Shown here in pieces: positions 40,884 to 63,736 of a DNA stretch of 64,000 nucleotides. The stretch comes from Candidatus Omnitrophota bacterium (GTDB taxonomy: Bacteria; Omnitrophota; Omnitrophia; Omnitrophales; Aquincolibacteriaceae). The translations under genes and the position numbers were made by a program. The stretch spans positions 17,079 to 81,078 of the forward strand of contig JAZDFE010000028.1 in assembly GCA_043808175.1 (NCBI GenBank), given 5' to 3'. The notes under the pieces are model-generated. The model worked only from the letters and a program-made list of their open reading frames with translations. It was not told the origin of the DNA and did no database searches. Each line of letters opens with the position of its first letter. The first letter of the stretch is position 1.

Positions 40884-40914
40884 CCCAAAAACACTTCTTT
40901 CTTTTCCTTATTGC

Positions 40915-41394: not shown

Positions 41395-41434
41395 GTTATT
41401 CCTCCCGTTTCTATGTTTGCCACTGCCTACTACT

Positions 41435-41586: not shown

Positions 41587-42825
41587 TTATTTGATCGCCT
41601 GAGTAAGCGTAAGAATGGGGAGAAAGAGAGCGATCACAATGCCGCCGATCACGATGCCCAGAAAAGCGATGATGAGCGGTTCAATGAGGGACGTAAGGCC
41701 TGAAACAGCGGTGTCCACCTGGACGTCATAAAAGTCCGCGATCTTTGTGAGCATCTCTTCCAATTCCCCGGTCTCCTCCCCGATCGCGATCATACGAACC
41801 ACCATAGAAGGAAATACTCCGCTTTTATCGAGAGGCCAGGCAATGCTTTCCCCGCGCGTCACGGATCCCATAAGATCGGTGATGACTTTCTCGATGCGGG
41901 CATTGCCCGAAGTCTTCGAAACGATCTCTAAGGCCGCTAAAATCGCCACACCGCTGCTCACAAGGGTCGCAAGCGTGCGCGCGAATTTGCTCACCGCGAC
42001 TTTCAAAATGATCGGACCAAAGATGGGCATTCGAAGCGTGAAGGAATCCCAGGGCAGCCGGCCCAACGGAGAGCTAACGAATTTCTTGAAAAGAAAAATA
42101 CTCCCGCCCAGGATGACAAAGATCCACCACCAGTTTGCCGCGAGATAATTGCTGATGGCGATCAGGATCTGAGTCGGTGCGGGAAGCTTCGCCCCCAAGC
42201 CTTCGAAGATCGTCGCGAATTGAGGGATCACGAAAGCAAGCATAAAAAACGTGATCGCAAAGGCCATGGCCGAAACGGCCATTGGATACATGAGCGCCGC
42301 TTTGACCTTTTTTTGAAGCGCGTTGGACTTTTCGAAATAATGGGCCACACGATCCAGGATATCCTGTAGCTTCCCGCTCATCTCGCCCGCGCGGACCATG
42401 TGAATGAAAAGCATCGAAAAGACCTTGTGGTGTACTTGCATAGCCTCGGAAAAACTTTTTCCGGTTTGCACATCGCTATGCATCTGCAGGATGATCCGCC
42501 GGAATTTTTCTTTATCCATCTGATCGGCCAAAATGTCAAGGGCCTGAATCAAGGGGATCCCGGCAGCGACAAGCGTGGCCATTTGCCTTGAAAAGATCAC
42601 GAGGTCGTCCAGCTTGACCTTCCCGGACTTTCCCTGCCGGGCCTTGGGGGCCGGCCCCTTCTGAACACTCAGAATGGCGGATCCCTTTTTGGCCTGTTCC
42701 ACACGCACCACAAGATAACCCTGCGTCTTCAGCTGGTGGACAAGCTCTTGCACGTCCTTGGCGTCCTGAGAGCCCTTCAGATCTTTTCCCGTCTTGTCCT
42801 TGACCCAATATTCGAACAATGGCAT
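41587..42825 (-). CDS. pilC: Type IV pilus platform protein PilC (GspF family)
   Basis: 412 aa with duplicated T2SS-F repeats and three TM segments. It lies adjacent to pilB. Confidence 0.85.
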   Translation of the reverse strand: MPLFEYWVKDKTGKDLKGSQDAKDVQELVHQLKTQGYLVVRVEQAKKGSAILSVQKGPAPKARQGKSGKVKLDDLVIFSRQMATLVAAGIPLIQALDILADQMDKEKFRRIILQMHSDVQTGKSFSEAMQVHHKVFSMLFIHMVRAGEMSGKLQDILDRVAHYFEKSNALQKKVKAALMYPMAVSAMAFAITFFMLAFVIPQFATIFEGLGAKLPAPTQILIAISNYLAANWWWIFVILGGSIFLFKKFVSSPLGRLPWDSFTLRMPIFGPIILKVAVSKFARTLATLVSSGVAILAALEIVSKTSGNARIEKVITDLMGSVTRGESIAWPLDKSGVFPSMVVRMIAIGEETGELEEMLTKIADFYDVQVDTAVSGLTSLIEPLIIAFLGIVIGGIVIALFLPILTLTQAIK

Positions 42826-42828
42826 GGT

Positions 42829-44523
42829 TTATTCCTCACTTGAAACGCGAAGCACTTCCTCAAGCGTGGTCACGCCGGCCTTGAAGAGTCCCAGAGCGTT
42901 CTCGAAAAGCGTTTCCATACCTTTCTCAACGGCAAGCTGATGAATAACATTACTCGATTTTTTCTGGATCACAAGCTCCCGGATATCCGGGTCCACAAGC
43001 AGCACTTCACTGGCGCCGGTCCTGCCGAAATATCCCGTCATGTTGCACTTGGGACAACCCTTTCCCGTGAACGGAGCGATCCTGTCCAATTCCGACTTGG
43101 AAAGCTTGCAACGGAGCAAAACCTCCGCGGGTATGACGGCCGGTGCCCTGCAATGCGGGCAGATCTTCCGAAGCAGTCGCTGGGCGCCAACGCATACGAC
43201 CGACGAAGCGATCAGAAAAGGCTCCACTCCCATATCCATCAGGCGTGTCATCGCGCCGGCCGCGCTGTTCGTATGGAGCGTGCTGAACACCAGATGGCCC
43301 GTCAAAGCGGCCTTTACGGCGATATCCGCCGTTTCCGAATCACGGATCTCCCCCACTAAAACTATATCCGGACTTTGGCGAAGCAACGCACGAAGACCGC
43401 TCGCAAAGGTCAGCCCGATCTCCGGCTGCACCTGCGTCTGAGTGATCCCTTCAACCTGATATTCGACAGGATCCTCCACGGTCATCAGATTTTTTTGTAT
43501 CGTGTTAAGGGAGTTCATGATCGAATAAAGAGTCGTGGATTTTCCGCTGCCCGTCGGCCCGGTCACCAGGATCAGTCCGTAAGGCTTCTTGATCGCTTCA
43601 GCGAGAGCGCGGGTCGGTTTCTCCGTAAAACCCAGCTTGTCGAGTCCGGCTTTGATACCGCTCCGGTCCAGAACGCGCAGGACTATCTTCTCGCCGAAAT
43701 AGGTCGGCAGCACCGAAACACGGAAATCGATCTGACGGTCCTTGAGTAATAGTCGGAACCGTCCATCCTGAGGCAAACGTCTTTCAGTGATGTCGATCAC
43801 AGAAATGATCTTGATGCGCGCCACGAGGGCCGGATAAAGCTCCAACGAGTGAGAGAACGATTCTTTTAAAGCTCCGTCGACACGGTACCGGATACGGAAT
43901 TCTTTTTCATAAGGCTCGAAATGGATGTCGGAAGCGCGCGATTTGAGCGCTTTTTCGAGGACGGAATTGACCATCTTGACAACCGGCGCGTTGTCCGTTC
44001 CGGTCTGCACGACGGACGGCGAGGCCTTTTCACTCCATCCCTCTATCTCCAGGTTGGAGGCGTCTTTTCCGGCAAGAAACTCGGCAAAGTTTTTGGTTTC
44101 CGCGTAATGGTCGCTGATGGCAGCGATGATCCGGGCGGGGGCCACCAACACCAGGTTGACACTGCATCCTGTCATGTGTTTAATCTCATCGAGGACCCCC
44201 AATTTGAACGGATCGCTCGTCGCCACCGTCATAAGCTTTCCGATGCGCCCCACCGGGAAAACGTGATGCTGCTCGATGAATTTCCTGGGAAACATCTTCA
44301 GCACTTCATCCTCAAACTGCATCCCCTGAAGGTTGAGGATGGGAATTCCAAGCTGGTCGCTCAAAAAATCCATGACATCTTCTTCCGGCAGGAGCTTTTC
44401 TTCAAGTATGATCTTGGGAATGCTTTCGTTGAGTCTCTGCGCGGCCATTTCCACACGGTCGCACGCTCCGGGGGCAAGCCCCATTTTTTTCATCCACTCC
44501 CGGGCGATCTTCGGATCAATCAT
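42829..44523 (-). CDS. pilB: Type IV pilus assembly ATPase PilB (GspE family)
   Basis: Walker A GPTGSGKSTT, GEIRD, a His box (TGHLVFSTLHTN) and the tetracysteine CPHC...CPKC. Confidence 0.85.
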   Translation of the reverse strand: MIDPKIAREWMKKMGLAPGACDRVEMAAQRLNESIPKIILEEKLLPEEDVMDFLSDQLGIPILNLQGMQFEDEVLKMFPRKFIEQHHVFPVGRIGKLMTVATSDPFKLGVLDEIKHMTGCSVNLVLVAPARIIAAISDHYAETKNFAEFLAGKDASNLEIEGWSEKASPSVVQTGTDNAPVVKMVNSVLEKALKSRASDIHFEPYEKEFRIRYRVDGALKESFSHSLELYPALVARIKIISVIDITERRLPQDGRFRLLLKDRQIDFRVSVLPTYFGEKIVLRVLDRSGIKAGLDKLGFTEKPTRALAEAIKKPYGLILVTGPTGSGKSTTLYSIMNSLNTIQKNLMTVEDPVEYQVEGITQTQVQPEIGLTFASGLRALLRQSPDIVLVGEIRDSETADIAVKAALTGHLVFSTLHTNSAAGAMTRLMDMGVEPFLIASSVVCVGAQRLLRKICPHCRAPAVIPAEVLLRCKLSKSELDRIAPFTGKGCPKCNMTGYFGRTGASEVLLVDPDIRELVIQKKSSNVIHQLAVEKGMETLFENALGLFKAGVTTLEEVLRVSSEE

Positions 44524-46289
44524 TGACCTCTCCCAAGGGACTTCGGCCCGACATCCGCGATCGTTACGCGGAAAACCTCGTCGAGCGATGTCTCGCCCGC
44601 GAGGGCCTTTTGGATTGCGGCTTCGCGAAGTGTGTTCATCCCGTGCTTCCGGGCCCTCTCCTTGATCAGATCCGCGGAAGTACCCTGCATGATCATCTCT
44701 AAAATATCCGGTTTCATTTCAAGAATTTCGGTGATCACGCTCCGGCCCTGGTACCCCATCTGGCGGCATTGTGAACATCCCTTGGCTCTCCAGAATTGCA
44801 GTTTTTTTTGCGGATTCAGACCCAGGATACTATACATATTGGGCTCGAGATCATATTGAACGCGACAGCGTGAACAAAGCCTGCGCACCAAACGCTGGGC
44901 CGAGATCATCAGAACGGTCGACGCGATCAAAAACGGCTCGAGCCCCAGATTCGCCATGCGGGTCACCGAACTCACCGCGTCATTGGTGTGAAGCGTACTC
45001 AGGACGAGGTGCCCCGTCAGTGCGGCCTTGATGGCGATATCGAGCGTTTCCGTGTCGCGGATCTCCCCGATCAAGATGATGTCCGGATCTTGACGCAGGA
45101 TCGAACGAAGAGCGCTCGGAAATGTCAACCCGATGGATTCGCGAACATTGACCTGATTGATACCAACCATCTGGTATTCTACAGGATCCTCGACCGTCGT
45201 GATATTGACCTGCGGGGAATCCAAATATTTGAGGATTGAATAAAGCGTGGTCGTTTTTCCGCTCCCGGTCGGCCCTGTCACAAGGATCATCCCGTGAGGT
45301 TTCTTGGCACAAGCCCGGATTACCTCCTGCTCCGGCGCCGTAAATCCGAGTTTTTGAATATCATGGGACTGTGCCCCGGTATCGAGAATGCGCAGGCAGA
45401 CCTTCTCGCCGAAGCTGGACGGCAGGATGGAAACGCGCATATCCACTTCCCGTCCCTGGGTCTTGATCTTGAAACGGCCGTCTTGGGGAACGCGGTGTTC
45501 CGAGATATTAAGCTGACTCATGATCTTAATACGCGAAACGATAGCGGCTCCAAAACTTTTTTGAGGCTTGACGAGCTCCTCAAGGATGCCGTCGAGACGC
45601 ATGCGGATCCGGACATAACCCTCCCAAGGTTCAATGAAAATATCACTCGCTCGGCGGCGCACCCCTTCCACGAGCACCATGTTGACAAGTTTTACGACCG
45701 GCGCCTGATTGGCCTGCTCCATGAGGTCCGCGGCCTGCTGCGGCCTAATAAGGGTCGCCTCGCTGTCGACCAGATTGGCAAGACTCACGAGGTCTTCGGA
45801 GCCCTCATCAGAAGCGGGCTCTTGCGGGGTCCCAGTCTCTCCCCGATAGGATTTCTGTATGCACTCCTTGATCTGGGAATATTCCGCCACCATAACATTG
45901 AGACGCTTTCCGGTGAGGGATTTAAGTTCGTCGAGGACCTTGATATTGATGGGATTTGCGGTAGCGACCGTTAAAGTATTTTCAAGCAGGGATAACGGGA
46001 GACACCCATAGGCCTCGGCGATTTTCTGGGGAACAAGCTTCAGGACATCTTTTTCAATGACGATTGTTTTGGGACTGGCAAGGCGCTGGCCGAATTCCTC
46101 GCAAAGAACCGTCACGAGTTTTTTCTCATCGCACTTTCCGGTCTGAAGAAGAATGTCCAATAAATGAAGTTTCTTCGGGCCTCGGGCCTGTTCCTGGACC
46201 GCCTGCTGGAGTTCCGCGGAACTTACGACCCCGGCCCGGAGAAGGGCTTCTTTCAGGTCCGGTGATGAACTTGACTTTGGTTCTGTCAT
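44520..46289 (-). CDS. Second GspE/PilB-family ATPase (tandem paralog)
   Basis: Walker A GPTGSGKTTT, GEIRD, TGHLVLSTLHTN and the tetracysteine CSRC...CSQC. It has its own N-terminal T2SSE_N-like region. It overlaps both neighbours by 4 nt. Confidence 0.8.
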   Translation of the reverse strand: MTEPKSSSSPDLKEALLRAGVVSSAELQQAVQEQARGPKKLHLLDILLQTGKCDEKKLVTVLCEEFGQRLASPKTIVIEKDVLKLVPQKIAEAYGCLPLSLLENTLTVATANPINIKVLDELKSLTGKRLNVMVAEYSQIKECIQKSYRGETGTPQEPASDEGSEDLVSLANLVDSEATLIRPQQAADLMEQANQAPVVKLVNMVLVEGVRRRASDIFIEPWEGYVRIRMRLDGILEELVKPQKSFGAAIVSRIKIMSQLNISEHRVPQDGRFKIKTQGREVDMRVSILPSSFGEKVCLRILDTGAQSHDIQKLGFTAPEQEVIRACAKKPHGMILVTGPTGSGKTTTLYSILKYLDSPQVNITTVEDPVEYQMVGINQVNVRESIGLTFPSALRSILRQDPDIILIGEIRDTETLDIAIKAALTGHLVLSTLHTNDAVSSVTRMANLGLEPFLIASTVLMISAQRLVRRLCSRCRVQYDLEPNMYSILGLNPQKKLQFWRAKGCSQCRQMGYQGRSVITEILEMKPDILEMIMQGTSADLIKERARKHGMNTLREAAIQKALAGETSLDEVFRVTIADVGPKSLGRGQ

Positions 46290-46744
46290 GATGGCCTGTC
46301 CGTCGCGCCCTCGTGATAAATAAAGAAGATGGCGTTCAATACCTCGGAGATCCGGGCAAGGAACACCTGGGGCATGCGCCCAGTCATCGTTCGGATCTTC
46401 TCAACGGCCACGTCGTTCATGGGATCTGTCACCGCGACATAGACTTTTTTGTGGTCGCAATCGAACGCTACGACCATGTTTTCATGGCAAAAATCCGCCG
46501 TCAGCATATTGGCCATGTCGGGATTGATCGCGTAATTCTTAAGCGGGATATAAGGAACTTTGAACTGCCTGCCCAAAGCGCCGATCAGCGACTCTTCGTT
46601 CACAAGTTTTTTTTCAATGAGGATCTGTCCGATCATGCCGCCTTTTTCCTTCTGAAAAGCAAGGGCTTCCTCGAGCTGAGCCTTGGACAAAAGCCCATCC
46701 TCGATCAAGATCTCTCCGATCTTTCTCTTTTTCTTGGGTTCCAT
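46286..46744 (-). CDS. Standalone T2SSE_N / MshEN-type domain protein
   Basis: 152 aa. KIGEILIEDGLLSKAQLEEALAFQ and MIGQILIEKKLVNEESLIGALGRQ fit the tandem MshEN pattern RLGxx(L/I/V)(L/I/V)xxG(L/I/V)(L/I/V)xxxxLxxxLxxQ. There is no ATPase domain. Confidence 0.65.
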   Translation of the reverse strand: MEPKKKRKIGEILIEDGLLSKAQLEEALAFQKEKGGMIGQILIEKKLVNEESLIGALGRQFKVPYIPLKNYAINPDMANMLTADFCHENMVVAFDCDHKKVYVAVTDPMNDVAVEKIRTMTGRMPQVFLARISEVLNAIFFIYHEGATDRPS

Positions 46745-51689: not shown

Positions 51690-54600
51690 TTACGCGGCTT
51701 TCAAGATCTGCCGGAACGCTACATAGAGAGCTGAAATATTCTTGAGAGCGCTGAGACTCTCCGCATTGATTACGATGCGCTTTCCTATAACAAAAAATCC
51801 TGGTTTTTGTCCGGATTCCGCGACCTGTTTCAGCAACGCAATATTTGCGTCACTATTTACTAGCCCTCTTTGATTGATGCTTTGCGCTGCCTTCACGACA
51901 GCGCTCCATACCCTCGGATCGCTGGCGAAATCTTTATCCTCCCAAAGACGCAGTGCATTCACTCCATCGAACTCAAAACCGAGCAGATCAAAAGCCGCAT
52001 CAGTGCCAGAAACAACATAGCCGTTTAGGAACTTCCTAACTTCCCTTTCCCTTTGAGCTTTCGGAGAGCTCATATTGCTCACCATGACATTTTTGATCAT
52101 CTTGGATGCAAACCCAGGCTTCTTGAATTCCACGGCGATCGCACGGATCAAATCCGAAAGCTGATCCGCACTCACAGCACCGCCCAACGCGAGCACTTTA
52201 AACTCTGCATTGGGATTTAACAGATAAGCGACAAAAAGCTCTCTGAGAAATTGTCTTGCGCTCGGCACATCCGCAAACCCGCTTTCAAGGAGTCGCGCCG
52301 GCTTGCCGCCCGCATCACTCATCGGCACCGTACTGTTCGGCACCGCTTTTTGCAATTTCCTGGAAAGATCGGCATTATCCACCAGTGTTGCGATCTGCGC
52401 TAAAATGTGGACGGCCGCTTCCACACTCTCCTCCGTCGCAAGCGGCACAAGGCCACGCGTCAGAATCAACGTGACCTGCATTTCGGGCGATAGATCATCT
52501 ACCCCGACGCCTATGTCGTTTGCGATCTTGTGGAGCGCAACAAAGGAAGTCCCCTCCAGGGTCACTCTTTCACCATTCTTCAACCCTTCCCTGATCACCG
52601 CCGCCACATCCTTTTCCGCTTCTGTTATCTGCGTCTTAGCACGGGCTTGAGTCGATCCCACAGATTCCCTCGCCTCAGCGCGGGTTTCTGATCTGATCGG
52701 GGTCGTCATGCCTGTCCCAGACTCAGCAGGCGGCATTTCTTCACTAGACTGCCGGGACTGATATTCTAAAATTGCGTCAAGATAACGGTCGATTTGATTC
52801 GCATCCTCATCCGAAATATGATGCGCCAACGTCTGATCTGCCCTTCTCCTGTTAAGCTTTTTGCTTTCTTCGACGCGAATATAACGAGCATCCAGAATAA
52901 AAAGACCGTAGTTGTTTTGCAAACGCTCCATTATTTCTGCTCTTCTGGGATCCTGGCCTCTTATCATTTCAAAGTAGTCATCACTCAATAGTTCCGCCCC
53001 CGTATAGGGAAAACCAGGGCCAGAGGCGGACATGCCGCCCGCTTGCTCCTGTTGGAGAATGGATGGAACACGGAAAATCAGCATCGGCCCGAGTTCGCCT
53101 ATTTGCTCCGAGAACTGAGAAGCCTCGATTCGCTCTTCCCAACTTGCAGGGAACTTGCCTGTGGCACGATAATTGGTTTGCACGGCCGTGCCCGTCATGA
53201 TCCCTGTCTTCGAAATATTTTCCAGTTCCTGCATGCTCATTATGCGATACCGCTCTTCCCAATAAACATATTTTCCATCGGCCATTTGATCGACCTCAAA
53301 AACATACATCCGTGGGTTTTCTAACGAACCGGCAACTTTTCTAGCCAATTCGATACGGCGAGCTTTTTCAGCTTCAACAATTCCTTCGTCATAAATAATA
53401 TAAAAAAGCTCTAAACGTGCCGCCCAGGCAAGCGCCCATTGCACGTGAGCCGCCGGTTGAGCCATATGCCGCTTTATCGGGCCAACCCCTCGAGTCACAT
53501 CAAGCCATCCGCCCTCCGGTTGTCCGAATAACTTCCCGCCAACAACTAAATGGGGGATTACTGTCTTTAGTTTTGATTCCAAATCTTTTTGCTCGTGAAC
53601 CGTACGACGAAATTCCTGAACTTGCTTGATCGCAAGCTTCGTATTTTCGATAACATTGCCGGACGCCTCCGAACTAAGTTCTTCCCTTGCTTCGGAGCGG
53701 CGCTCTCCTTCACTTGTTTCTGGCACTGCCGCGGCCGGTTTCTTTTTTGTAGCCATTACATTCAGAACCAAATTGCTTTTGTCCGGGTCATAACCCATTT
53801 CTTCTTTAATATAAACAAACTCGGTCACAAATCCGCCCTGCTCATTGGCACGGTCGAATACAGTTCCTTTAAAAAGTTCCCTAAGGGAGGACAACTCCGT
53901 TTTTTTCTCCTCCGACTCGCTGGCTACTTGTTGCAATTTTTGATAATCTAAAAGGAATGGCAAGAATTTTTCACTTCGGTATTCCGAAAAAAACGACAAG
54001 ATTCCTGAAGTTGGAATATTTGCACTTGTTTCGGCTTTCTTCCGGAGAACGGGGAGTCGCTCTCGAAAAGCACGATACTTCCCAAGAACCTCCTGCCCTG
54101 CCTCTCCCCCTCTCCGATCCAATTCTTCAAAAGCCCTTTCCACCATGACCACCAATGTCATTGGGTTAATGATGTCGGTGATGGTCATGACGGTGCCCTC
54201 CGCCATTTTTTTCAAGAACTCCTCCGTAAAGTGGTTCCCGCGATCCCCAACGTCCAGACCGATCCAGTGAAGATTAAAAACAGGAGGGATGCCGTAGTGA
54301 TCACCTGACGGTGAGATCTGGATTTCACCGACACGCTCCTCCTCCCCTGGACTGTCCATCCGAACAATGGAAAAAGAGTGCAGTGGCGTGGGCGCGTCAT
54401 CATCCCTCCCTTCCTCATACTGAAGCCCGTATCGCGCGGCATCCTCCCCCGTTATTTGATAGTTCTGGATCTCTTCTAAAAATGGCCTGTCTTCGCTCGA
54501 AACATCCCTAAAAAGTTCCCCCCGCATTTCGGAACGTGGTTCCCCTTCGCCGGGGCTTACTATTTCTTCAAGCGCATTGACAACTTTGGGGTCGAACTTC

Positions 54601-57600
54601 GCAGGATCTTGACGCAACGCCGCGATGACTTCCTGTGGGGTCGACGGAGCATGATAAGGACGCTCCGAGGTCCGAGCGTCAAAGTAATCTGCCACGGTCA
54701 CAATGCTCGTCAGACGATTGACATGATTTTCTGCGTGGTGCATTTCAACGATCTTCTGCACGATCTCCCGGTACGGAACTCCCGTCGGAACCAACGCAGC
54801 ACCCGTCTGGGGGTGAAGATCCATCACGGTTTTCTCAGAAAACTCCAACGCTCTGGGTTTTTGAAGAATGCTATCCGGTACTACGATCTTTCCGAGATCG
54901 TGAAACATCGCGGCATCAGACAGGATCGTAGCATCCGCCGGACTCAATCCCATCTGCTTCGCGATCAAAAGGCTGAGATCCCGCACCCGCACTGAATGCT
55001 CGTAAAGTTCCGGATCTTTGGCCTGAAGATCTTTGATCGCGTTCTCAAAGCTCATCAGCGGCGATTCCTCCCGCATTTCGGAGCGGCCTGCGATAAGCAC
55101 AGAATAAGGCACGCGACGGCCGCCTAATTCCTCCAAGGCTTGTCTGGCTTTTTCGCGCTGAGCCTTGTGGTAAAGAGAAAGAAGCGCTTCTGCTTTGGCA
55201 GGTTTGAATGTGAGGATCTGACTGTATTTTCCCCGTTCCACGTCCATGGCTTTTTCGAGATCTTCCGGGGAAACTGCCTTTACCACTTCCGAAAGCCACG
55301 CTGTCATGCTCATGATACTGTTGATCTTAAAAAGAGGGGTGAGGTGTTCTTTTTGGACATTGATCAGTAGAAGCCGGGGAGACGTCGTTTTAGGAACTCC
55401 GGGGATCTCGCTAAGACGCCCCTTTAATTCCAACGCCAAACTGTCTAGTGTTTCAACTGTAGGCGGACCACGGTTTCTTTGGGCATCTTGATGAAACGCT
55501 GCCACCATTCCGTCCGGAGCCACCCGGAAAAGGATCGTTCCCTTTCCAAGCATCTCCTGGACCGTCTCTCCGTCTTTGATCCCAAAAAGTTCGCGTGCGA
55601 TCCCGGAAACAGCCGTGATGGTCTCATCCCCTCTATCGTAGCCGATCTCGCTTTGAAATTCATGGAACGCCCTCTCTACCGTCTTCCCCTCCGTGTAGCC
55701 CTGGACCGTGAGATGGCTCATACCGTCGATTGCGGCCTCTTTTTCCCGAACCGCTGCCTGCCCGGCCGTTTCCGTCAAAAAGCCTGTGAGCGTATCCACG
55801 ATCTCCGGATCATTTTTCTCAGAGCGGAATTTCCGTTCCTCGATCTTTTTCGCTTCTTTTTCGACCTTTGCCGGTGTCACCGCAGTTTTAACAAAGAGCC
55901 CGACAGCAGCCTGATTCCTTCCCTTATTCTTTGCTTCCGAAAGCGCGTCATTGGCCAGGCGCATCGACCACAAAGCAAATAATCCCATGCGGTTAGGCCT
56001 TAAAGTTTCTACGCCGTCTTTCATGAAAGTCCAATAATCCCCTCCGTCCTCATCCTTCACGTTCTTCATCACATCTTGTAAATACTTTAACGTCTTACCG
56101 GCGGGGACTGCGCCGATAGAAACGCTGAAAAATCCCCGCTCAGGGGTTTCGAATTGGACCCCAGAAAGCTGATCGCCTTCCAATCCCAGTTCCGTATGGA
56201 TCTTTTGCAAAAATCCGCTCCATGCCCCTTCCCCGCTCAGTTTCTGCCTGTCGACAAGAATATAGGTACCGCCCGCATAATGCGCCGCGCTAAGTACAAG
56301 GGGATCTTCCTTCAAACGCAACGTTTCAGACACGCTGAGAGTTTTAGTTTCATCCACCACCAGAACCGCATAACGTTCCCGAAACGCTAAAGTGAATTCT
56401 CGAATGACGCTCTTCAGTTCTTCCTGACCGAACTTTTCGTTTGCCAGGATCATGAATTCATCCCCGCCGGAACCACGAAACACTTTTGCTTTATATTTTT
56501 CCAAAAGCTTGAACCATTCTTCCCTCAATTTAAAGAAAGGTGATTCATTGGGTGGAAAAAGATGGTCAACCGATTTCAACAGACTTAGAACCCCTACGAT
56601 CGCTTTACCGCCGAGCGCTAAATTTTGGGCGCCGGCCTTATCGAGATCTCCGGTAATGAAAAGGAATTTTTCAAGATGAGCCACCTCGGGATGTTCCCGC
56701 AAATAATCCAAAAGTTGTTCCGTTCCTTCAGTTTTTGTTTTCCAAAAATCCCTCCAACTACCGGTCACCCCCTGCGTCATCACCCCCGTCCGCACCTCGG
56801 AACGTGGGAGGGCCATGTGTACCGCCACATCCCCAAGAGACAAGCCAGGATTCCCAAGTAAAAAGTTCCTCATTTCGGAACGTTGTTTTCCGATTTTTGC
56901 TTTTTGCGGACTTGGTTTTACGGTTTTAGGAGCAGCCTTTAAGATAGGGTCCAATTGCCGTGCGTACTGGGCGAGCTCCGGGGTCAAACGTTCTACGGCA
57001 TCTTCCGCATCGCGAACGGCCCCAGCCGCCTCTCGCTTGATAATTTCCCATTCGGCCGTTGTGTACCCTTTGGGGGAATATGCGTTCAATTTTTCGAGCT
57101 TCCGTCTGGCATCGCCGAGATATTTTCGTTCCAGGTCAGTTAAATTCTTCAAGTTAATACTGAGGCGTTTTCTCTCCCCTTGAAACCTTTTGCGATCACG
57201 TTCGTTTAAGGGTATTTTTTCTTTGAGTTTTTCCTCGAGCTTTTCCCCTTTAATTTTGTCCGCTAAGGCCTCGGCGTCCCGGATCCTGCGAAGCGCATTG
57301 GTAAGAGGCGCATTAACGTTTTCTACTTGATAGAGATCCACCGTGAGGTTCTTGAACAGCGTTACCGTATGTTGCCGGTAACTTTCGCTCAAGGCTTCCC
57401 CCATGGTTTGTTCCACCAACTGTGCTGCGAACGTTTTAACAGCAATTGCTTTCAAGTAGGTCGCAAGTCCGAAATGAAGGTTGGCTTCCTCCCCCTCGTT
57501 CCTGGGCTTTGCGGTATCTCCCAGATAAGGCGTATTGTATTTTCCGTGGAACCGCGGCCACCCGTCCTTCTCCCCGGGCCGGCCTGCAACATCCTGGGCC

Positions 57601-58301
57601 GTAGGCTCCATACGAATGTAAATGAATAGCCGCCACAGGAGATGCTGCAAAGTCGGGTCCAAGGCGATACTTTCCCGGATGGTTCTCATTTCCTTTGTAT
57701 TCAAATTGTTGTATGTTGCCGCCCGAAGCGCCTTGTAAAAAGCGTCCACGCCGGGAGTCCAATTTTTTTCTATGAGCTGCCTTACGGAACTGTCTTCGGG
57801 TGCTAGCATCGCCTCACGGAAAACATCGACCGCTGATTGAGCCTCGATCTGGAAGGGACCTGCCGCGGGACCTTTTTTCTTTTGATAAGGTTCGAACGTC
57901 GGATTTTCGAGATAGGTTAGATAGATCGCGGCGAAGGCCAAATGCTGGATGCGCTCTGCACGTTCTTTTTCGCTGGCGTTGGGATAAAGAGTGGCCTCGG
58001 AATCCCTTAAGAAAACTATGGTGTCCAGATAGTGACGGATAATACGCTGCATCTGTTCGTTTTGTATATTCTCCGTATCGATCGCCGTCAAATTACCCTG
58101 CAGCGCTTCAAGATCAAATGGGGTAAGCACTCTCACCGGTGCGACGGCCGTACTCGTTCCGGGCTCGACCACCGGCGATGCATTGTGGAACACGTAATAG
58201 ACCGCTCCTCCACTCAGCAACACCAACGATAGTGTGCCAATAGCAAATGTTAGTTTGATGCGCTCAAGCTCGGATTGGGGAATTCTTATTCGCACTCGCA
58301 C
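51690..58301 (-). CDS. Giant multi-module protein (2203 aa): TM anchor, SLT-like, GGDEF, degenerate GGDEF, HD-GYP-like and three unassigned modules, separated by RSExR linkers
   Basis: It is one uninterrupted ORF. The GTG start at 58301 overlaps the upstream giant gene by 16 nt. It has a TM helix (LTFAIGTLSLVLLSGGAVYYVF), a GGDEF motif (FRGSGGDEFMIL), an HD motif (FHDLGK) and six in-frame RSExR motifs. Confidence 0.8.
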   Translation of the reverse strand: MRVRIRIPQSELERIKLTFAIGTLSLVLLSGGAVYYVFHNASPVVEPGTSTAVAPVRVLTPFDLEALQGNLTAIDTENIQNEQMQRIIRHYLDTIVFLRDSEATLYPNASEKERAERIQHLAFAAIYLTYLENPTFEPYQKKKGPAAGPFQIEAQSAVDVFREAMLAPEDSSVRQLIEKNWTPGVDAFYKALRAATYNNLNTKEMRTIRESIALDPTLQHLLWRLFIYIRMEPTAQDVAGRPGEKDGWPRFHGKYNTPYLGDTAKPRNEGEEANLHFGLATYLKAIAVKTFAAQLVEQTMGEALSESYRQHTVTLFKNLTVDLYQVENVNAPLTNALRRIRDAEALADKIKGEKLEEKLKEKIPLNERDRKRFQGERKRLSINLKNLTDLERKYLGDARRKLEKLNAYSPKGYTTAEWEIIKREAAGAVRDAEDAVERLTPELAQYARQLDPILKAAPKTVKPSPQKAKIGKQRSEMRNFLLGNPGLSLGDVAVHMALPRSEVRTGVMTQGVTGSWRDFWKTKTEGTEQLLDYLREHPEVAHLEKFLFITGDLDKAGAQNLALGGKAIVGVLSLLKSVDHLFPPNESPFFKLREEWFKLLEKYKAKVFRGSGGDEFMILANEKFGQEELKSVIREFTLAFRERYAVLVVDETKTLSVSETLRLKEDPLVLSAAHYAGGTYILVDRQKLSGEGAWSGFLQKIHTELGLEGDQLSGVQFETPERGFFSVSIGAVPAGKTLKYLQDVMKNVKDEDGGDYWTFMKDGVETLRPNRMGLFALWSMRLANDALSEAKNKGRNQAAVGLFVKTAVTPAKVEKEAKKIEERKFRSEKNDPEIVDTLTGFLTETAGQAAVREKEAAIDGMSHLTVQGYTEGKTVERAFHEFQSEIGYDRGDETITAVSGIARELFGIKDGETVQEMLGKGTILFRVAPDGMVAAFHQDAQRNRGPPTVETLDSLALELKGRLSEIPGVPKTTSPRLLLINVQKEHLTPLFKINSIMSMTAWLSEVVKAVSPEDLEKAMDVERGKYSQILTFKPAKAEALLSLYHKAQREKARQALEELGGRRVPYSVLIAGRSEMREESPLMSFENAIKDLQAKDPELYEHSVRVRDLSLLIAKQMGLSPADATILSDAAMFHDLGKIVVPDSILQKPRALEFSEKTVMDLHPQTGAALVPTGVPYREIVQKIVEMHHAENHVNRLTSIVTVADYFDARTSERPYHAPSTPQEVIAALRQDPAKFDPKVVNALEEIVSPGEGEPRSEMRGELFRDVSSEDRPFLEEIQNYQITGEDAARYGLQYEEGRDDDAPTPLHSFSIVRMDSPGEEERVGEIQISPSGDHYGIPPVFNLHWIGLDVGDRGNHFTEEFLKKMAEGTVMTITDIINPMTLVVMVERAFEELDRRGGEAGQEVLGKYRAFRERLPVLRKKAETSANIPTSGILSFFSEYRSEKFLPFLLDYQKLQQVASESEEKKTELSSLRELFKGTVFDRANEQGGFVTEFVYIKEEMGYDPDKSNLVLNVMATKKKPAAAVPETSEGERRSEAREELSSEASGNVIENTKLAIKQVQEFRRTVHEQKDLESKLKTVIPHLVVGGKLFGQPEGGWLDVTRGVGPIKRHMAQPAAHVQWALAWAARLELFYIIYDEGIVEAEKARRIELARKVAGSLENPRMYVFEVDQMADGKYVYWEERYRIMSMQELENISKTGIMTGTAVQTNYRATGKFPASWEERIEASQFSEQIGELGPMLIFRVPSILQQEQAGGMSASGPGFPYTGAELLSDDYFEMIRGQDPRRAEIMERLQNNYGLFILDARYIRVEESKKLNRRRADQTLAHHISDEDANQIDRYLDAILEYQSRQSSEEMPPAESGTGMTTPIRSETRAEARESVGSTQARAKTQITEAEKDVAAVIREGLKNGERVTLEGTSFVALHKIANDIGVGVDDLSPEMQVTLILTRGLVPLATEESVEAAVHILAQIATLVDNADLSRKLQKAVPNSTVPMSDAGGKPARLLESGFADVPSARQFLRELFVAYLLNPNAEFKVLALGGAVSADQLSDLIRAIAVEFKKPGFASKMIKNVMVSNMSSPKAQREREVRKFLNGYVVSGTDAAFDLLGFEFDGVNALRLWEDKDFASDPRVWSAVVKAAQSINQRGLVNSDANIALLKQVAESGQKPGFFVIGKRIVINAESLSALKNISALYVAFRQILKAA
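54567..55019 (-). other. HD-GYP-family phosphohydrolase domain with degenerate GYP
   Basis: HSVRVRDL, FHDLGK, DLHPQTG and VADYFDARTSERPY are present. HHAENHVNRL stands in place of HHExxDGxGYP. Confidence 0.6.
55497..55799 (-). other. Second, degenerate GGDEF-like domain (RGDET)
   Basis: It starts with DTLTGFL and has YDRGDET (55620..55634) where GGDEF would be. Confidence 0.45.
55902..56684 (-). other. GGDEF (diguanylate cyclase-type) domain with intact GGDEF
   Basis: FITGDLDKAGAQN (metal-site-like), SGGDEF (56454..56468), SVSIGAV and ANDALSEAKNKGRNQ follow the canonical GGDEF order. An internal insertion is present. Confidence 0.65.
57612..57974 (-). other. Lytic-transglycosylase (SLT)-like segment within the 2203-aa protein
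   Basis: YLENPTFEP...GPAAGPFQIEAQSA...ALRAATYNNL parallels the SLT pattern ES...GxxGLMQI...AYNxG. The match is loose. Confidence 0.35.
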
Positions 58302-61300
58302 TTCGGAGCGGGTGGAGGGAGGCTGTTGTTCTTCGGCTTTGGCGCTATCATCGATCCGGCATTCGCACGAGGCTCTGCCAGAGCATTGATCAATGCATCG
58401 ATCCGCGCGGATCTTCCTGCGTCCAGGCGGTCCGCATTTTGTTCTTTGATTACACTCAAAGCCTGCCGGACCGTTGCCCCAAGAGCCTCTTGCCGTATCC
58501 GTATCAAGCTCAGAATGTCTTCCGACGTCCCACCGAGGAACCTCTGAAGATCCTGGGGGTCGATCGAAGCCACATCGCGTACGGCTTGAACCAGGAACTC
58601 AGGACTCATTTCACTCAACGCATCCAACACCAAGGGACCATCGAATGAGAACGGTGTACCGATCGGCTGGATCTCGGTGGCATTGGTCAGATCAAAAAGG
58701 GCATAGTAGCGGCGTCCGTCGATCCTGGACATGCCAACATTGTGATCCAGCTTGAAATCCGTAGCTCCGGTAAGCGCCAAGAACGCTAGGATCCTTTCAA
58801 TACCCGAGGTGCGCGACTCGACCAATTCCGGCAAAGTTAGTTCTTTCGCATCACGGGATAAAATGGCATTTATAAAACCCAGCTGATCGATGTCGTAGCC
58901 TAAGCCCATAATCTGGGCACTCCAATAACGTAAAAATTTTTCGGGCATCGATAGATCTTCTACGGAAGTCTCGGTCCAACGTGGGGTATTCACGCCTACA
59001 AGCGCTGCCAAACGGTATCCTCTTACTTCTTTCTCCATTTCACGCGGGTCATCCACTTTCAAATACCATTTTTCATTCGTAGTCCTGTCATTGACGTACC
59101 AAGCGTACTCGGGAACTCTTTTCAAAACCTCTAAATCGGCCGCTTTGGGAAACGCCGACGGTTGCTCGCCTGCCCGCGCTTCGGAGCGGGCTAAGAGTTG
59201 CTCGCCTTCCCTTCCTTCGGAGCGCTTGCCCTCAGCAGCTTTGGTAAAAGCAGCACTGGATTTCCGGATGATGACGTAATGGATGTCGCGATCTTCCAGC
59301 TTCCCGGCGCTGAAGGATTCGATCCCGGTCTCGGCTTGTTCTTCTGGAGAGCCCCTGACACTGCCTGAGATTGTCGGAACTTCACCCTGCGGATAAGCCA
59401 CCACCAAGATCCCGCCGGGTCTGACCTTGTCTCGAAAAATACCCGCCAGTGTTTGAGAAGAAAGAACGGCGCTCGGCACAACCACCCAAGCGGCCAGCCC
59501 CTCACTTTGCCCGAAATCTCCTTGTTCATTCATGACAAGACCGCCGGCAGCAGTATCAATTCCCAAGTCAAAACGTTCAGCAATTTCCTGAATACGGCTT
59601 GCCACCCAGGCCACGGTCGAAACACTTATTTGATCCGCTGCCTGCTGAGGTTTTCTTTTCGAACCAACAGTTTCCCACTCAACCTTGGGCCTTGGATGAA
59701 GCTGCATCCTGGTTTCTATGATTTCCCGGATCCGGGAAATACCTCCGTCCTCACTCCCCGCCACTCCCCTAACTTCGGAGCGGGCTTCGGGTCCTTGTTC
59801 CGCTGACCGCGCCGACGCACCGGACATGGGCGCGAAGTAAGCATCGAACTCTCTTTGTTCACGCTGGTAGTAGCCGGTGAATGCATCGCCGTAGGGTTTT
59901 CGGTAATTACGGATATCTAGCAGCGGCACCAGCTCCCCGGCAAAAGAATGGTCATCCGCGATCCGATGATCAAAAACCGTGGCCGTCGCGCCGGTATAGA
60001 AAAAACGCTCCCCTCCTTCAGATTGCCGAAGAATATTGATTTCCTCGGGAGTGAGTATTTCGGATAGAGACGGCATCGGACGGATAGAAATCGTCGTGAC
60101 CTGAGCTCCGTCGATACCGGTGAGCATTTCCTGGACACGGCTGGTCATGTATGGAACGGCTACGATCACTTTCGGCTGGAGAAGCCCCCACTTCCGGTAA
60201 TAATCCGCAACCGATTTAATCGTGTTGTTGAGCTGCTCACCGCTATACGCCGCATCGTCGACGATTAAAAACGTACCGATCCCCTGGTCGGCCATATTTT
60301 TGAGCGACTGGGTCATGGGTTCAGCCCGTCCCTGGAAATAGTTCGCCGCAGCGGCAGGCCTGCTTAACAAGGTTTGAAGCAGCGAATAGGTCCAGCGTCG
60401 CGATGAATGTGGCTTGTAGTCCCAAAGGGCCGCGTAGGGGCGGCCGTCTTTTTCGATTTCCTCGTTGATACGACCTGCAAGCTCACGCAGGCTGAAACGG
60501 AATTCCTCGAAAGTCACATGATGGAAAGCGCCGAGAAGCTTTTGCTTCACCGCAACGGCTTCGGGGCTTCCAGACATCTTCCAAACATCCGCCTTTCCCA
60601 TATCGAGCGCGACGGTACCCGGCTCGGGAACGTCCGTGGAGGGCAAAACAGACGGCGGCTCGCCTGCCCGCATTTCCGAGCGCTGTTTTCCAAGAACTTC
60701 CGTCGCTTCGGTTGGAACTTCGGGTTTTGCGGCAGGAGGTAGTACGGCTGGTCCTTCGGTACCTGGTACCGTTGCGGCCGCTTGCAATTTCAATATCGCT
60801 TTTTTCAGAGCTAGGATCGCTGCCTCAGATTCCTCTTTCGTGATCCTGTTTTGATCGGTCGTAAAAATGCAATCAATGATGCCTACAACTTCGAAGATCC
60901 TTTTTCCATTTTCAAAGCCAACTTCCCGAATAATGTAATTGCTTGGATTTTCATCCCAAAAGAGCAACTGCGGCTTTTTTCCCATGATATCACGGATCAT
61001 TTTTTCGATCTGATCGGCGACATCCTTTAACTCTTCATGGCTTAATCGATTGGCAACTTTATCAAGCGGAAGATCAGGGAACCATTCACGGACCACGGCA
61101 ACGGCTTTCCTGTCATTCGTCTGGATCTCCCCATACAATTTCGGGATGCCTTTCATTCCTTGGGTTATCCGCAAAACGGCCGCTTCGTCAGAAATATTTT
61201 CCGAGGATTTTCCCGGATCCAGGGTCCCGATAAGTCCTCCCACCATCTTGATCGCCACTTCTTGACCGTCCACTTTTCCATGATACGTATCTCCAAATGT

Positions 61301-63736
61301 CCGGCGATGAAAGAGATCCTTCTTAGGGTTCATGATGCCCAAGGCCGCCAAAATTTGTCTTTGATAATCGATGATGTCCTGCCCTTCCTTTTTCCATGGG
61401 TCGATTTTGCTAATGACACCACCTTTCGCATCAAAAGAGATGGTTCTTGTTTGACGCACCTCGGAGCGCACCGGTTTTGCCACCTCGGAGGTGGCAGAGC
61501 GGGTTGAGAAAAACGCTCCCATCGCCTGGGCAACCGTGGCGGCAAATTCAGCCGTAGGGACTCCCGCATTTGCCGCACCTACAGATACAAGATCCCGAAC
61601 GTCACTTTCGGCCTTAGCCGCCTCTGGTGCTTTGACTTCGCCTGCCTTAATCGCGTTCTGCGTTGTTTCCCCAACTTGTCCAAGCTGACCTGCTAATCGC
61701 ATCGCGAAAACCACTGCCGCAGGATTTGTAGTTGGTAAGGCTGTACCCGCCATGGTTCCAACGACGTCCCGGATCTGAAAAGGTGTCGCAAGAATTTTCC
61801 CAATGTCGAATGCAGATACCTGTGTTTGGATTTTCGTTGAAACAACCTTGTAAAAATTTTGTCCCGTTTTTTCGATCCGGATTTCCGCACGGACTGCCAT
61901 TTCAGACTTGTTAAATATTTGAACGGCATCCTCCACACTGCCAGCCTGCCCGACAGCGCCAATAGCCCGTAATTCGGACTTAAGACGGCCTGCCATGGCA
62001 GTTTTCCCGATCTGTGCCACTTGCACTGTCAGGGGCATCAATGGCGACGTAGTCTCCAAGTACGATAGTTCAAAAAGACTGGGTTTGTTTTGTAACATCA
62101 CGTTGCGATATAGGTTTTCGTTTGATTTTTCGCTGAGGCGCGGGGTGAGGGTGCCGTAGCTTATTTCATGTTCCCTTAGGAGTTCCGTGATCCCGTCCGT
62201 GTGGAAACCGCCGGTAATGAGCACCGCTTTGTTGAGCGACTCTTTCCGCATCACCGAATCGATCTTTTCGTAGAAAACGTCTTCGCGCTTCCGAGCCGCC
62301 TCGTAGAACCCGTAGGCCGCCGTCTGAACCCCTACCACTTCTCCACGGAATTTGGGATTGACCGGCTTTGTCTCGAAATTGGAAAGTGGCAAGCCGGACT
62401 CCTGACTTACCGCCGTTCCAATCTCCTTAAGTTCCGCGACGAGTGGATCCATCGCGAGTAGGTCTTTTTTTGCGAGGACCTCCTGCCAGTCCTTACGGGT
62501 CAATTCGAGGTTAAGGAGCTTACGGACCAATTCTTCGCTCCGGTACAGCTCCAGCAATTTTTTCTCGCGCTGGCTTACGGCCAGCTGATCCAGGATCCGC
62601 GTGAACAGGACCCTGATCTCGCCAAAAAGCCCTTTCGGGTCCATTTCGCTTTTGAGGATGAGATAACCGGCATAAAGACTGAAATGCGGATAATTGTAAA
62701 AATAAAAACCTTTAGGCCCTGCCTCGGTGACGAGTTGCTCCATCAGGTCGCGCGGCTCGACCGGTGCCGCCGCGCCGCCCCGAGTCCCTTGCAGCACGGT
62801 CACCTGCTGGTCCCGGAAATTCTCGATCGCTGTAATGAGGTTCGCCGAGACCCGTTTTTCTTTGAGGAATTTGATCAGTTGGTCCCGTTCCGCCAGGCCC
62901 TTTTGCATATCCAGTTCTTTTTCCATTGTCTGGAGCACTAGAAGCCGTGTGATCTGCGGCCACTCGATCTGAGAAAGCAGGCTTTCGAGGTCGATGCCGA
63001 GCACTCGCTTCGACTCGGCTGCGAGGCCTTTCACATAAGGCATGAACTCCCGATGCCCCGCTTCAAATTTTTTCCATTCCCCGAGAAGCTTCAGCAGGTC
63101 CTTCGAGAAAACCTTGGAAGCCAGCGACGAGAGCCGCCCCTCGAAACCGTTCAGATAACGCTTCACCGTCACTTCCGCGCCAAAGACTTTTTTGAGCGCT
63201 TCGTAGTTCTCGCGGTAAAGTCCCGCATCTTCGATCCCATGCGCCTTCGGTGTGCTCAACGCCTGTTTTCCTTCCGTTGCGCTGTCTTGTTCCATTAAAT
63301 ACAACTCCGCGCCCGTGAGTTCCCCTTGTTTCGCCAAAAATTCCGCAAGCTTCAGGTTCCGCTCCCGGTCCGGGAACATCTTGAGATAATCGGGATTAAG
63401 ATCTTCCGAAGCGCCTTCCACGAAGATCGTTTTCATCGCGTAATGCCTCTCTAAGTACTGCAGAAGCTCTTTAATCTTTTGCTGCGCTCCGTAATTGGCG
63501 TGCGCATTCTGAATGTGGAGAATGAGTTTAGGGTCTTGCCGCGGAGGCGCTTCATACAATCCGTCAAGCGTTGCGAGTTCTGAGGGGATATCGATCCTGA
63601 GAAAACTGGGCAATTCCCGGCTGACCGCGATCTCGATCCCGGCACCGGGATTTGCGAACGCGACCTGGGAAACAAGAAAAAATCCCATTGTCAGTAAACT
63701 GACCGCCCGAGTCATTATTTTCTTTTTAGTTTTCAT
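58286..63736 (-). CDS. Giant secreted multi-module protein (1816 aa): signal peptide, ChaN/Tiki-like, protein-kinase-like, PRTase-like, unassigned and HipA/PI-kinase-like modules, separated by RSExR linkers
   Basis: It is one uninterrupted ORF with the RBS GAGGAG before ATG 63736. The Sec signal peptide is MKTKKKIMTRAVSLLTMGFFLVSQVAFA. There are five in-frame RSExR motifs. Confidence 0.8.
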   Translation of the reverse strand: MKTKKKIMTRAVSLLTMGFFLVSQVAFANPGAGIEIAVSRELPSFLRIDIPSELATLDGLYEAPPRQDPKLILHIQNAHANYGAQQKIKELLQYLERHYAMKTIFVEGASEDLNPDYLKMFPDRERNLKLAEFLAKQGELTGAELYLMEQDSATEGKQALSTPKAHGIEDAGLYRENYEALKKVFGAEVTVKRYLNGFEGRLSSLASKVFSKDLLKLLGEWKKFEAGHREFMPYVKGLAAESKRVLGIDLESLLSQIEWPQITRLLVLQTMEKELDMQKGLAERDQLIKFLKEKRVSANLITAIENFRDQQVTVLQGTRGGAAAPVEPRDLMEQLVTEAGPKGFYFYNYPHFSLYAGYLILKSEMDPKGLFGEIRVLFTRILDQLAVSQREKKLLELYRSEELVRKLLNLELTRKDWQEVLAKKDLLAMDPLVAELKEIGTAVSQESGLPLSNFETKPVNPKFRGEVVGVQTAAYGFYEAARKREDVFYEKIDSVMRKESLNKAVLITGGFHTDGITELLREHEISYGTLTPRLSEKSNENLYRNVMLQNKPSLFELSYLETTSPLMPLTVQVAQIGKTAMAGRLKSELRAIGAVGQAGSVEDAVQIFNKSEMAVRAEIRIEKTGQNFYKVVSTKIQTQVSAFDIGKILATPFQIRDVVGTMAGTALPTTNPAAVVFAMRLAGQLGQVGETTQNAIKAGEVKAPEAAKAESDVRDLVSVGAANAGVPTAEFAATVAQAMGAFFSTRSATSEVAKPVRSEVRQTRTISFDAKGGVISKIDPWKKEGQDIIDYQRQILAALGIMNPKKDLFHRRTFGDTYHGKVDGQEVAIKMVGGLIGTLDPGKSSENISDEAAVLRITQGMKGIPKLYGEIQTNDRKAVAVVREWFPDLPLDKVANRLSHEELKDVADQIEKMIRDIMGKKPQLLFWDENPSNYIIREVGFENGKRIFEVVGIIDCIFTTDQNRITKEESEAAILALKKAILKLQAAATVPGTEGPAVLPPAAKPEVPTEATEVLGKQRSEMRAGEPPSVLPSTDVPEPGTVALDMGKADVWKMSGSPEAVAVKQKLLGAFHHVTFEEFRFSLRELAGRINEEIEKDGRPYAALWDYKPHSSRRWTYSLLQTLLSRPAAAANYFQGRAEPMTQSLKNMADQGIGTFLIVDDAAYSGEQLNNTIKSVADYYRKWGLLQPKVIVAVPYMTSRVQEMLTGIDGAQVTTISIRPMPSLSEILTPEEINILRQSEGGERFFYTGATATVFDHRIADDHSFAGELVPLLDIRNYRKPYGDAFTGYYQREQREFDAYFAPMSGASARSAEQGPEARSEVRGVAGSEDGGISRIREIIETRMQLHPRPKVEWETVGSKRKPQQAADQISVSTVAWVASRIQEIAERFDLGIDTAAGGLVMNEQGDFGQSEGLAAWVVVPSAVLSSQTLAGIFRDKVRPGGILVVAYPQGEVPTISGSVRGSPEEQAETGIESFSAGKLEDRDIHYVIIRKSSAAFTKAAEGKRSEGREGEQLLARSEARAGEQPSAFPKAADLEVLKRVPEYAWYVNDRTTNEKWYLKVDDPREMEKEVRGYRLAALVGVNTPRWTETSVEDLSMPEKFLRYWSAQIMGLGYDIDQLGFINAILSRDAKELTLPELVESRTSGIERILAFLALTGATDFKLDHNVGMSRIDGRRYYALFDLTNATEIQPIGTPFSFDGPLVLDALSEMSPEFLVQAVRDVASIDPQDLQRFLGGTSEDILSLIRIRQEALGATVRQALSVIKEQNADRLDAGRSARIDALINALAEPRANAGSMIAPKPKNNSLPPPAPKCECE
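58289..59173 (-). other. C-terminal HipA / PI3-PI4-kinase-like module
   Basis: WYLKV (Lys), EVRGYRLAALVGV and LTGATDFKLDHNVG...YYALFDL resemble the GxxDxHxxN...(A)YD/DFG layout. Confidence 0.4.
60230..60271 (-). other. Phosphoribosyltransferase-type PRPP-loop motif
   Basis: FLIVDDAAYSGEQL matches four hydrophobic residues, two acidic residues and xx(S/T)Gx(T/Q)L. I verified the codons on the minus strand. Confidence 0.5.
60842..61339 (-). other. Protein-kinase-like module
   Basis: VAIKM supplies the beta-3 Lys. WDENPSNYI has the D-x-x-P-x-N catalytic-loop pattern. IIDC is the DFG-equivalent Asp. They occur in the canonical order. Confidence 0.5.
62132..63529 (-). other. ChaN/Tiki/TraB-superfamily-like region (tentative)
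   Basis: ILHIQNAHANYGAQ...IFVEGAS near the start and VLITGGFHT near the end resemble the GxxH...E...GxxH layout of that superfamily. This is pattern-level similarity only. Confidence 0.3.

Follow-up and report, generated by a model that had tools for sequence, protein, structure and literature searches.

The 64 kb window analysed here, which is the whole stretch taken from contig JAZDFE010000028.1 of a Candidatus Omnitrophota bacterium, carries two giant open reading frames (ORFs) on its minus strand, ORF A upstream and ORF B downstream. All features of these two ORFs described below are on the minus strand. ORF A (58286..63736) starts with ATG and codes for 1816 amino acids (aa; NCBI MFH1208772.1), and ORF B (51690..58301) codes for 2203 aa from a GTG at 58301. 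Based on the sequence comparisons described below, we consider it highly probable (roughly 0.93) that A (5' part) and B (3' part) belong to a single gene of about 4,015 codons, a member of a modular family of giant proteins from Omnitrophota.

ORF A ends 16 nucleotides (nt) inside ORF B, as ...PPPAPKCECE (in a longer view ...APKPKNNSLPPPAPKCECE), followed by the stop codon TAA at 58286..58288. The B frame is −1 relative to the A frame, as the A frame has the codon AAG at 58303-58301 and the GTG of B begins at 58301. Both points had been made in an earlier reading of this DNA, termed here the sequence-only reading, and they agree with the coordinates. That reading also placed the start of B at 58301. 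This GTG does open the 2203 aa ORF, but the public annotation begins B two codons later, at the GTG at 58295 (2201 aa, MRIRIPQ...). Because of this annotated start, ORF B with M at 58301 had no exact match in the protein collection. The N-terminus of B from 58301 reads V-RVRIRIPQSELERIK, next to which is a hydrophobic helix.

When the B frame is read upstream of its GTG it gives ...SAKAEEQQPPSTRSE and, with the start included, ...RIDDSAKAEEQQPPSTRSE-V-RVRIRIPQ. The gene boundary is thus straddled by the motif RSEVR (CGC TCC GAA GTG CGA, 58296..58310), just as the sequence-only reading had claimed, and the GTG inside the motif is the earliest start codon available in the B frame. This motif separates the last cassette of A from the first cassette of B. 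Immediately 5' of it, and likewise in the B frame, is the linker AEEQQPPST (58311..58337), which is homologous to AEEQQPPVT in a relative. The junction copy had been called the twelfth of its kind, which is correct for the general form RSExR (11 other in-frame copies) but not for the exact RSEVR, of which there are only three others. The B frame is free of stop codons for 100 codons upstream, to a TGA at 58599..58601, which is even further than the approximately 58526 given before. This open stretch was considered as evidence for a fusion and rejected, as open runs of at least 87 codons cover 20-25% of the −1 frame positions in A and B and are ordinary for these genes.

The junction in related loci and the architecture of the family

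A scan of one genome per species (genome_contigs) yielded two related loci, L001 and L002, both from metagenome-assembled genomes of Candidatus Omnitrophota. Related loci are labelled L001-L005 and family proteins P0002-P0110, with P0101 being the full gene of L001. The closest relative, L001/P0101, is a single ORF of 6,270 aa with 75-79% identity. It combines in one polypeptide the head of A, the last cassette of A (75%), the first cassette of B (79%), and the tail. In both L001 and L002 the region homologous to B is found inside one ORF of >5,700 codons that is already open where the fetched sequence begins, and in L001, L002, and the window alike the giant gene is followed by the genes for RimO, PgsA, and CinA.

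The last cassette of A (A1522-1800, 58337..59173) has a homolog in L001 which runs in frame into RSEMR; over A1512-1815, the window is 75% identical to L001 residues 2068-2370. In the A frame the window reaches ...NAGSMIAPK before it departs from L001, the protein of which continues in frame as ...NAGSTVAPKAEEQQPPVTRSEMR (also read as ...APKAEEQQPPVTRSEMR). While L001/P0101 reads ...INALAELNINAGSTVAPKAEEQQPPVTRSEMR at this position, the window reads ...INALAEPRANAGSMIAPK in the A frame and AEEQQPPSTRSEVR in the B frame. At the DNA level the difference is a single base (CCAAAGCC in the window, CCAAAAGCC in the closest relative). The alignment of the window (GCGCC-AAAGCCGAAGAACAACAGCCTCCC) with L001 (GCGCCAAAAGCC...) contains one gap, after which the next 21 nt are identical. 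This gap corresponds to a frame-breaking one-base deletion in an A-run, which is AAA at 58338..58340 where the closest relative has AAAA. Compared to the intact orthologs, the reading frame at the window junction is thus disrupted. The last 16 residues of A, PKNNSLPPPAPKCECE, are the out-of-frame reading of the linker and the motif, and ANAGSMIAPKPK... as well as the ...CECE end are specific to the shifted product of A.

In the sequence-only reading the switch point had been confined to about 58315-58345, with an A-AAG at about 58340, and a comparison of orthologous junctions had been proposed. The frames switch exactly there (A-run 58340-58338, with one extra A in L001), and the orthologous junction is fused, within one ORF, in L001/P0101 and in P0102. 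In the latter, the last cassette of A runs directly and in frame into RSEIR. The trans-frame peptide predicted at that time, ...IAPKAEEQQPPSTR, equals ...VAPKAEEQQPPVTR of the relative except for two positions.

The family was defined from 99 database matches (A itself and 98 relatives) together with the two loci; where 100 relatives are counted, these are the 98 matches without A and what is visible of the ORFs in L001 and L002. Essentially all of the 99 proteins retrieved with A are from Omnitrophota. A signal peptide and a conserved head (A1-640, 61817..63736, including HIQNAHANYGAQ) are matched in all 99 database hits. This type of head (about 600-650 aa, with signal peptide) is present in 98 of the 98 relatives and in the closest related locus but is not found in B. 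The conserved tail, in turn, is located at the end of B (B1892-2203, 51693..52628, ending ...FRQILKAA) and was obtained by an iterated profile search. The profile built from the last approximately 320 residues of B had 52 matches, with the tail at the extreme C-terminus in all 52; B1892-2203 matched it with an E-value of 2e-84, and the search with this profile gave no match in A. A C-terminal [AS]A, as in B, occurs in 80 of the 100 relatives. The iterated profile drifted after iteration 8 and dropped the closest relatives, so that the 52 and the 80/100 were counted separately. Family members range from 1,000 to 6,270 aa, with 0 to >16 unrelated cassettes between head and tail, the shortest being essentially head plus tail.

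The fact that the head is found only in A and the tail only in B, while both are in one polypeptide throughout the family, indicates that the window holds one member which has been cut in two. Head and tail are in two ORFs of different frames in the window, and restoring one A at 58338-58340 places them in a single ORF of 4,015 codons (51690..63736), laid out as head, cassettes bounded by RSExR, and tail, consistent with the ortholog alignment and the family architecture. Directly observed are the homology, the lack of one base, and the fact that relatives have a single ORF.

The deletion of one A in the linker after the last cassette of A would break the frame, such that the A frame would run through 16 nonsense codons (PKNNSLPPPAPKCECE) to the TAA and the true continuation, AEEQQPPST-RSEVR and the next cassette, would lie in the −1 frame. 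That ORF callers begin B at the GTG within RSEVR is only due to this being the earliest start codon there. The cassettes of B align to relatives at 54-76% identity without breaks, and there is no downstream decay. The 2,203 uninterrupted codons of B imply that selection acted on it until very recently and may still be acting. A1522-1816 and B1-482, joined into one junction query, had zero matches in a word-indexed protein search, which is probably due to a swamped candidate list, as an exhaustive search found 11 relatives.

Translation signals at the junction

If A and B were instead an evolved pair of translationally coupled genes, the RSEVR upstream of the start of B would be a relic or a coincidence. 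The overlap of 16 nt resembles that of coupled gene pairs, two proteins are given in the public annotation, pairs of adjacent large ORFs are also found in other family members, and B opens with a basic stretch and a hydrophobic helix (LTFAIGTLSLVLLSGGAVYYVF, B17-38, 58188..58253) which is signal-anchor-like. However, the GTG of B has the worst Shine-Dalgarno score among the 42 starts in the window (+1.9 kcal/mol; upstream sequence CCTCCCTCCACC, also given as CCTCCCTCCACCCGCTCCGAA), and a ribosome-binding site for B was not found inside the end of A. The start of A has AGAGGAG, and about half of the genes in the window, A included, have a clear GGAG-type site. The basic stretch and the helix are internal, preceded in frame by RSExR, in P0101, P0102, and P0103, and the helix is an internal transmembrane segment in relatives. 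Moreover, A is without the family tail and B without the family head, the last 16 residues of A are an off-frame version of a conserved linker and motif, and the splits in other genomes are at different, non-homologous positions. We thus regard a two-gene arrangement as highly improbable.

The first cassette of B (B1-473, 56883..58301) contains, after the basic stretch and the transmembrane helix, a conserved domain of unknown function. The exhaustive search with this cassette retrieved 11 proteins, one of which is B as annotated (2201 aa). In 8 of the 10 other relatives the cassette is internal, beginning anywhere from residue 670 to 3898, and one (P0109) is a stand-alone homolog of 443 aa. 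Three relatives share with the cassette the invariant sequence ENPTFEPYQKKKGPAAGPFQIEAQ; this region (ENPTFEPY...GPAAGPFQI) is one which we provisionally take to resemble the ES...GLMQ motif of lytic transglycosylases. The cassette had no Pfam match and nothing significant in a profile search against the PDB. Elsewhere in the giant protein, an HD domain was detected by Pfam, and GGDEF-like, kinase-like, and PRTase-like signatures were seen by eye only.

Programmed or functionally relevant −1 frameshifting would provide a different use for the junction, with a slip at CCA-AAG making a 4,015 aa protein beside the 1,816 aa product. In the A frame, CCA (58342-58340) and AAG (58339-58337) occupy 58337..58342, and this is the sole place where a −1 slip of tRNA-Lys (from AAG to AAA) regains the ancestral reading. 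A-AAG is a tetranucleotide prone to −1 shifts (dnaX, insertion sequence elements, Bacillus subtilis cdd), the slip reproduces the orthologous APKAEEQQ exactly, and the linker and motif in the B frame are intact. On the other hand, a slippery heptamer of the type X-XXY-YYZ was not found at the junction, where the sequence is G-CCA-AAG, which re-pairs poorly in the P site. The sequence-only reading had likewise noted that a canonical heptamer is lacking and that the A-AAG is the only slippery-like element near the switch, and we concur. The predicted RNA fold is no better than that of shuffled sequences (z −0.57 for the 90 nt downstream, z +0.40 for a 121 nt context), and by eye we saw no element resembling a Shine-Dalgarno sequence (GGAGG-like) in the 25 nt upstream. 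The shift is also not conserved, as L001/P0101 and P0102 are in frame here. Because an almost identical sequence is in frame in the relative, with the extra A, nothing at this site has evolved as a recoding signal, and frame breaks in other family members are at unrelated places, such as the G8 run of L004 and the interior of a domain in L003. Programmed frameshifting is accordingly very unlikely, while an unprogrammed, low-level slippage of tRNA-Lys at CCA-AAG is possible.

The sequence-only reading had left the choice between a split single gene, an assembly indel, and a low-efficiency frameshift fusion. Its view of the pair as one gene is borne out by the single ORF in the relative, with the extra A precisely at the switch point. 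Its frameshift-fusion option has the least support, given the missing heptamer, structure, Shine-Dalgarno stimulator, and conservation. The split is an ordinary frameshift or assembly indel and involves no new mechanism.

The RSExR motif and the cassette boundaries

Besides the junction copy, 11 in-frame RSExR motifs were found by a motif scan, five in A and six in B, with M, V, A, T, or G in the variable position. Those of A are RSEVR at A757 (61454..61468), RSEMR at A1019 (60668..60682), RSEVR at A1319 (59768..59782), and a tandem of RSEGR (A1505) and RSEAR (A1517) at 59174..59224. Those of B are a pair of RSEMR (B474) and RSEVR (B500) at 56790..56882, RSEMR at B1073 (55071..55085), RSEMR at B1256 (54522..54536), RSEAR at B1535 (53685..53699), and RSETR at B1870 (52680..52694), the latter immediately before the tail. 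The in-frame copies are always within linkers rich in P, E, A, and K. The motifs of the two close pairs are separated by EGEQLLA (RSEGR-EGEQLLA-RSEAR) and by 21 aa (RSEMR, RSEVR), and the pairs represent either mini-cassettes or duplicated boundaries.

That the junction motif might be a chance off-frame match was also considered. The 100 open codons upstream in the B frame would be compatible with this, being ordinary here. However, only 3 off-frame occurrences of RSE.R exist in the six-frame translation of the 64 kb window (about 128,000 codons), and the composition predicts approximately 0.04-0.06 per protein. Furthermore, the junction copy fits the codon consensus of the motif, and its linker is homologous to that of the relative. 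With the ortholog alignment refuting it, the probability of a chance match is negligible. At the nucleotide level, the pattern CGYTCCGARNNNMG has 12 matches in the window versus 0.67 expected. Two more matches to the nucleotide motif are outside the frame of the giant gene, at 54661-54675 (+), antisense within B, and at 15187-15200 (+); these are probably chance matches, given the 0.67 expected per window.

The motif is a property of the family. RSE.R occurs 314 times in 101 family proteins, with 4.3 expected, while permuted controls occur 4-9 times and RAE.R 88 times. In the family as a whole, V, A, M, L, T, S, and I occur in the variable position, and there is no conservation in the flanks of the motif. 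Two proteins, P0104 (5,059 aa) and P0084 (2,642 aa), are without RSExR and have other linker repeats instead (13 copies of GARLA and five of ASLG, respectively). The delimiter motifs thus appear to be lineage-specific (RSExR, GARLA, ASLG).

Where the window, L001, and L002 share blocks of homology, these are delimited by motifs at both ends. The window junction itself consists of the left flank of the L001 boundary at residue 2367, the motif, and the right flank of the L001 boundary at residue 3330, with about 960 residues of L001 (two cassettes) being absent. Gain and loss of cassettes thus seem to break exactly at the motif, and RSExR marks cassette boundaries precisely, as the junction copy shows.

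Codon usage was analysed for 51 motif sites from six genomes (the window and L001-L005). The serine codon of the motif is TCC in 43 of the 51 (background 0.21, p 1e-21) and never AGY (0/51), the first arginine codon is CGY in 45 of the 51 (background 0.36, p 1e-14), and valine in the variable position is encoded by GTG in 11 of 13 cases (background 0.31). The nucleotide consensus is CGY TCC GAR RYG MGG. As the cassettes are only 30-80% identical, synonymous sites are expected to be randomised. Internal initiation at the codon of the variable residue (ATG or GTG) was considered and rejected, since 37% of these residues in the family are A, T, or S, which do not have start codons.

We tentatively propose, as an idea which is unlikely, that RSExR may be a cassette boundary signal at two levels, protein and nucleic acid. 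At the protein level, RSExR would be the site where polyproteins are cut or separated into single enzymes, with GARLA and ASLG doing the same elsewhere. At the nucleic acid level, its conserved 15 nt core would allow recombination to add, remove, or swap cassettes in frame, or would drive a codon-dependent translational event. If this were true, the two products of the break in the window, which is located shortly before a boundary motif, would look like those of normal processing, and the tolerance and recurrence of splits in the family would be explained. We found no relevant paper on RSEMR, RSEVR, or RSEAR in the literature.

Origin of the missing base and comparison with known systems

As to the origin of the missing base, we infer with about even odds that the assembled population has truly lost it by a very recent mutation. 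An indel introduced by the assembly or the consensus is held at somewhat below even odds. Neither origin looks programmed. Because B keeps 2,203 intact codons, any real lesion must be very recent; given the lack of further decay, the lesion is therefore very recent, compensated, or artefactual. Searches of metagenome_contigs with peptide patterns of the corrected junction, and with a 28-base DNA pattern allowing either A3 or A4, found nothing. Exact look-ups of A, B, and the protein P0001 in the contig index likewise had no match.

Split ORFs were also encountered in other members. P0002 (1,374 aa) is followed by a 4,347 aa ORF with an overlap of 31 nt, L003 shifts frame at about 5560, inside a methyltransferase-like domain, L004 shifts frame at a G8 homopolymer (16539-16576), resulting in two adjacent large ORFs, and L005 is split (13222-13267) into 1,073 aa and >3,386 aa. 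The unrelated positions of these splits fit sporadic lesions or errors in very long targets and not a shared mechanism.

Several points weigh against the interpretation of the pair as one gene broken by an ordinary mutation or an assembly error. Judged by Pfam/NCBIfam profiles, some 40 further genes of the window have their full length, which argues against an assembly that is generally prone to indels, although it still allows for one local error. The splits in P0002, L003, L004, and L005 could be tolerated or recurrent biology and not error. The exact linker is common to one relative only (L001/P0101), with that of P0102 being shorter and different. Finally, the basic stretch and hydrophobic helix at the N-terminus of B would serve as a signal anchor, so that B possibly functions independently.

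Given a real lesion, a secreted fragment of 1,816 aa would be produced, comprising the head and five cassettes. The remaining 2,200 aa would be made only via inefficient re-initiation at GTG 58301 or 58295, or via rare −1 slippage of tRNA-Lys. As the break is in a linker, both pieces would keep whole cassettes.

The overlapping ORF pairs 867/1717, 46821/47464, 26443/27291, and 28340/29950 were considered as further frameshifts and rejected, as each pair represents different complete genes. The overlapping pair 38480/39136 had no Pfam match for either of its ORFs (38480-39160 (-) and 39136-39714 (-); Pfam scan only), and a 641 aa ORF at 8847-10772 (-) had no match in Pfam or NCBIfam. About 5 kb downstream of the giant gene is a cluster resembling type IV pilus and type II secretion system (T2SS) genes (window 36440-46744), which codes for a protein with an MshEN domain, two PilB-like ATPases, PilC, PilM, and the secretin PilQ.

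Splits of genes by one-base indels are familiar, whether as real events or as artefacts, and the finding itself is ordinary. In practice, the two hypothetical proteins of the public annotation (1,816 and 2,201 aa) should be replaced by a single gene of about 4,015 codons, with a flag for a frameshift or for verification at the read level. Such splits affect how many giant genes are counted in Omnitrophota, as five of the approximately 100 members examined are broken likewise. A short family-wide delimiter with conservation at the codon level is, in addition, a concrete and testable candidate for cleavage points or cassette shuffling.

Among known −1 frameshift sites with A-AAG (A-AAA-AAG in dnaX, IS911, CGA-AAG in Bacillus subtilis cdd), the window shares the A-AAG at the exact switch and a −1 shift which restores a long product. 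It differs from them by being without a heptamer, a stimulator resembling a Shine-Dalgarno sequence, a downstream hairpin, and conservation. Viral polyproteins are an analogy for RSExR only. The likeness is a sharp five-residue motif in unconserved linkers between independently folding modules; the differences are that cleavage at RSExR, and a protease for it, are hypothetical and that its synonymous codon constraint goes beyond what a cleavage site needs.

Giant proteins of at least 30 kaa (thousand amino acids) have been reported from Omnitrophota, with their cleavage points stated to be unknown (West-Roberts et al. 2023, 10.1101/2023.11.21.568195), which makes RSExR a concrete candidate, and Omnitrophota proteins of at least 10 kaa have been catalogued (Nielsen and Lui 2026, 10.64898/2026.06.07.730766). 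Neither paper mentions a conserved head and tail or an RSExR delimiter, and the words motif, linker, and cleavage have 0 occurrences in the text of Nielsen and Lui. Local assembly errors were found to terminate giant genes, and the repair of a local assembly error merged two neighbouring giant genes of one contig into a gene for 74,983 aa (West-Roberts et al. 2023). The window resembles these split giants in having two adjacent large ORFs that are one base apart in frame. It differs in that an error is one of two candidate origins, no other gene is seen to be broken, and the A3/A4 run is short.

Compared to the multi-enzyme giants of Omnitrophota, the protein of the window is much shorter (about 4 kaa, with 1-6.3 kaa in the family). 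It is like them in being from the same phylum, in tiling unrelated enzyme-like domains, in having a signal peptide and transmembrane segments, and in having pilus/T2SS-like genes nearby. The cluster beside the gene in the window matches the secretion loci which have been reported beside giant genes of Omnitrophota.

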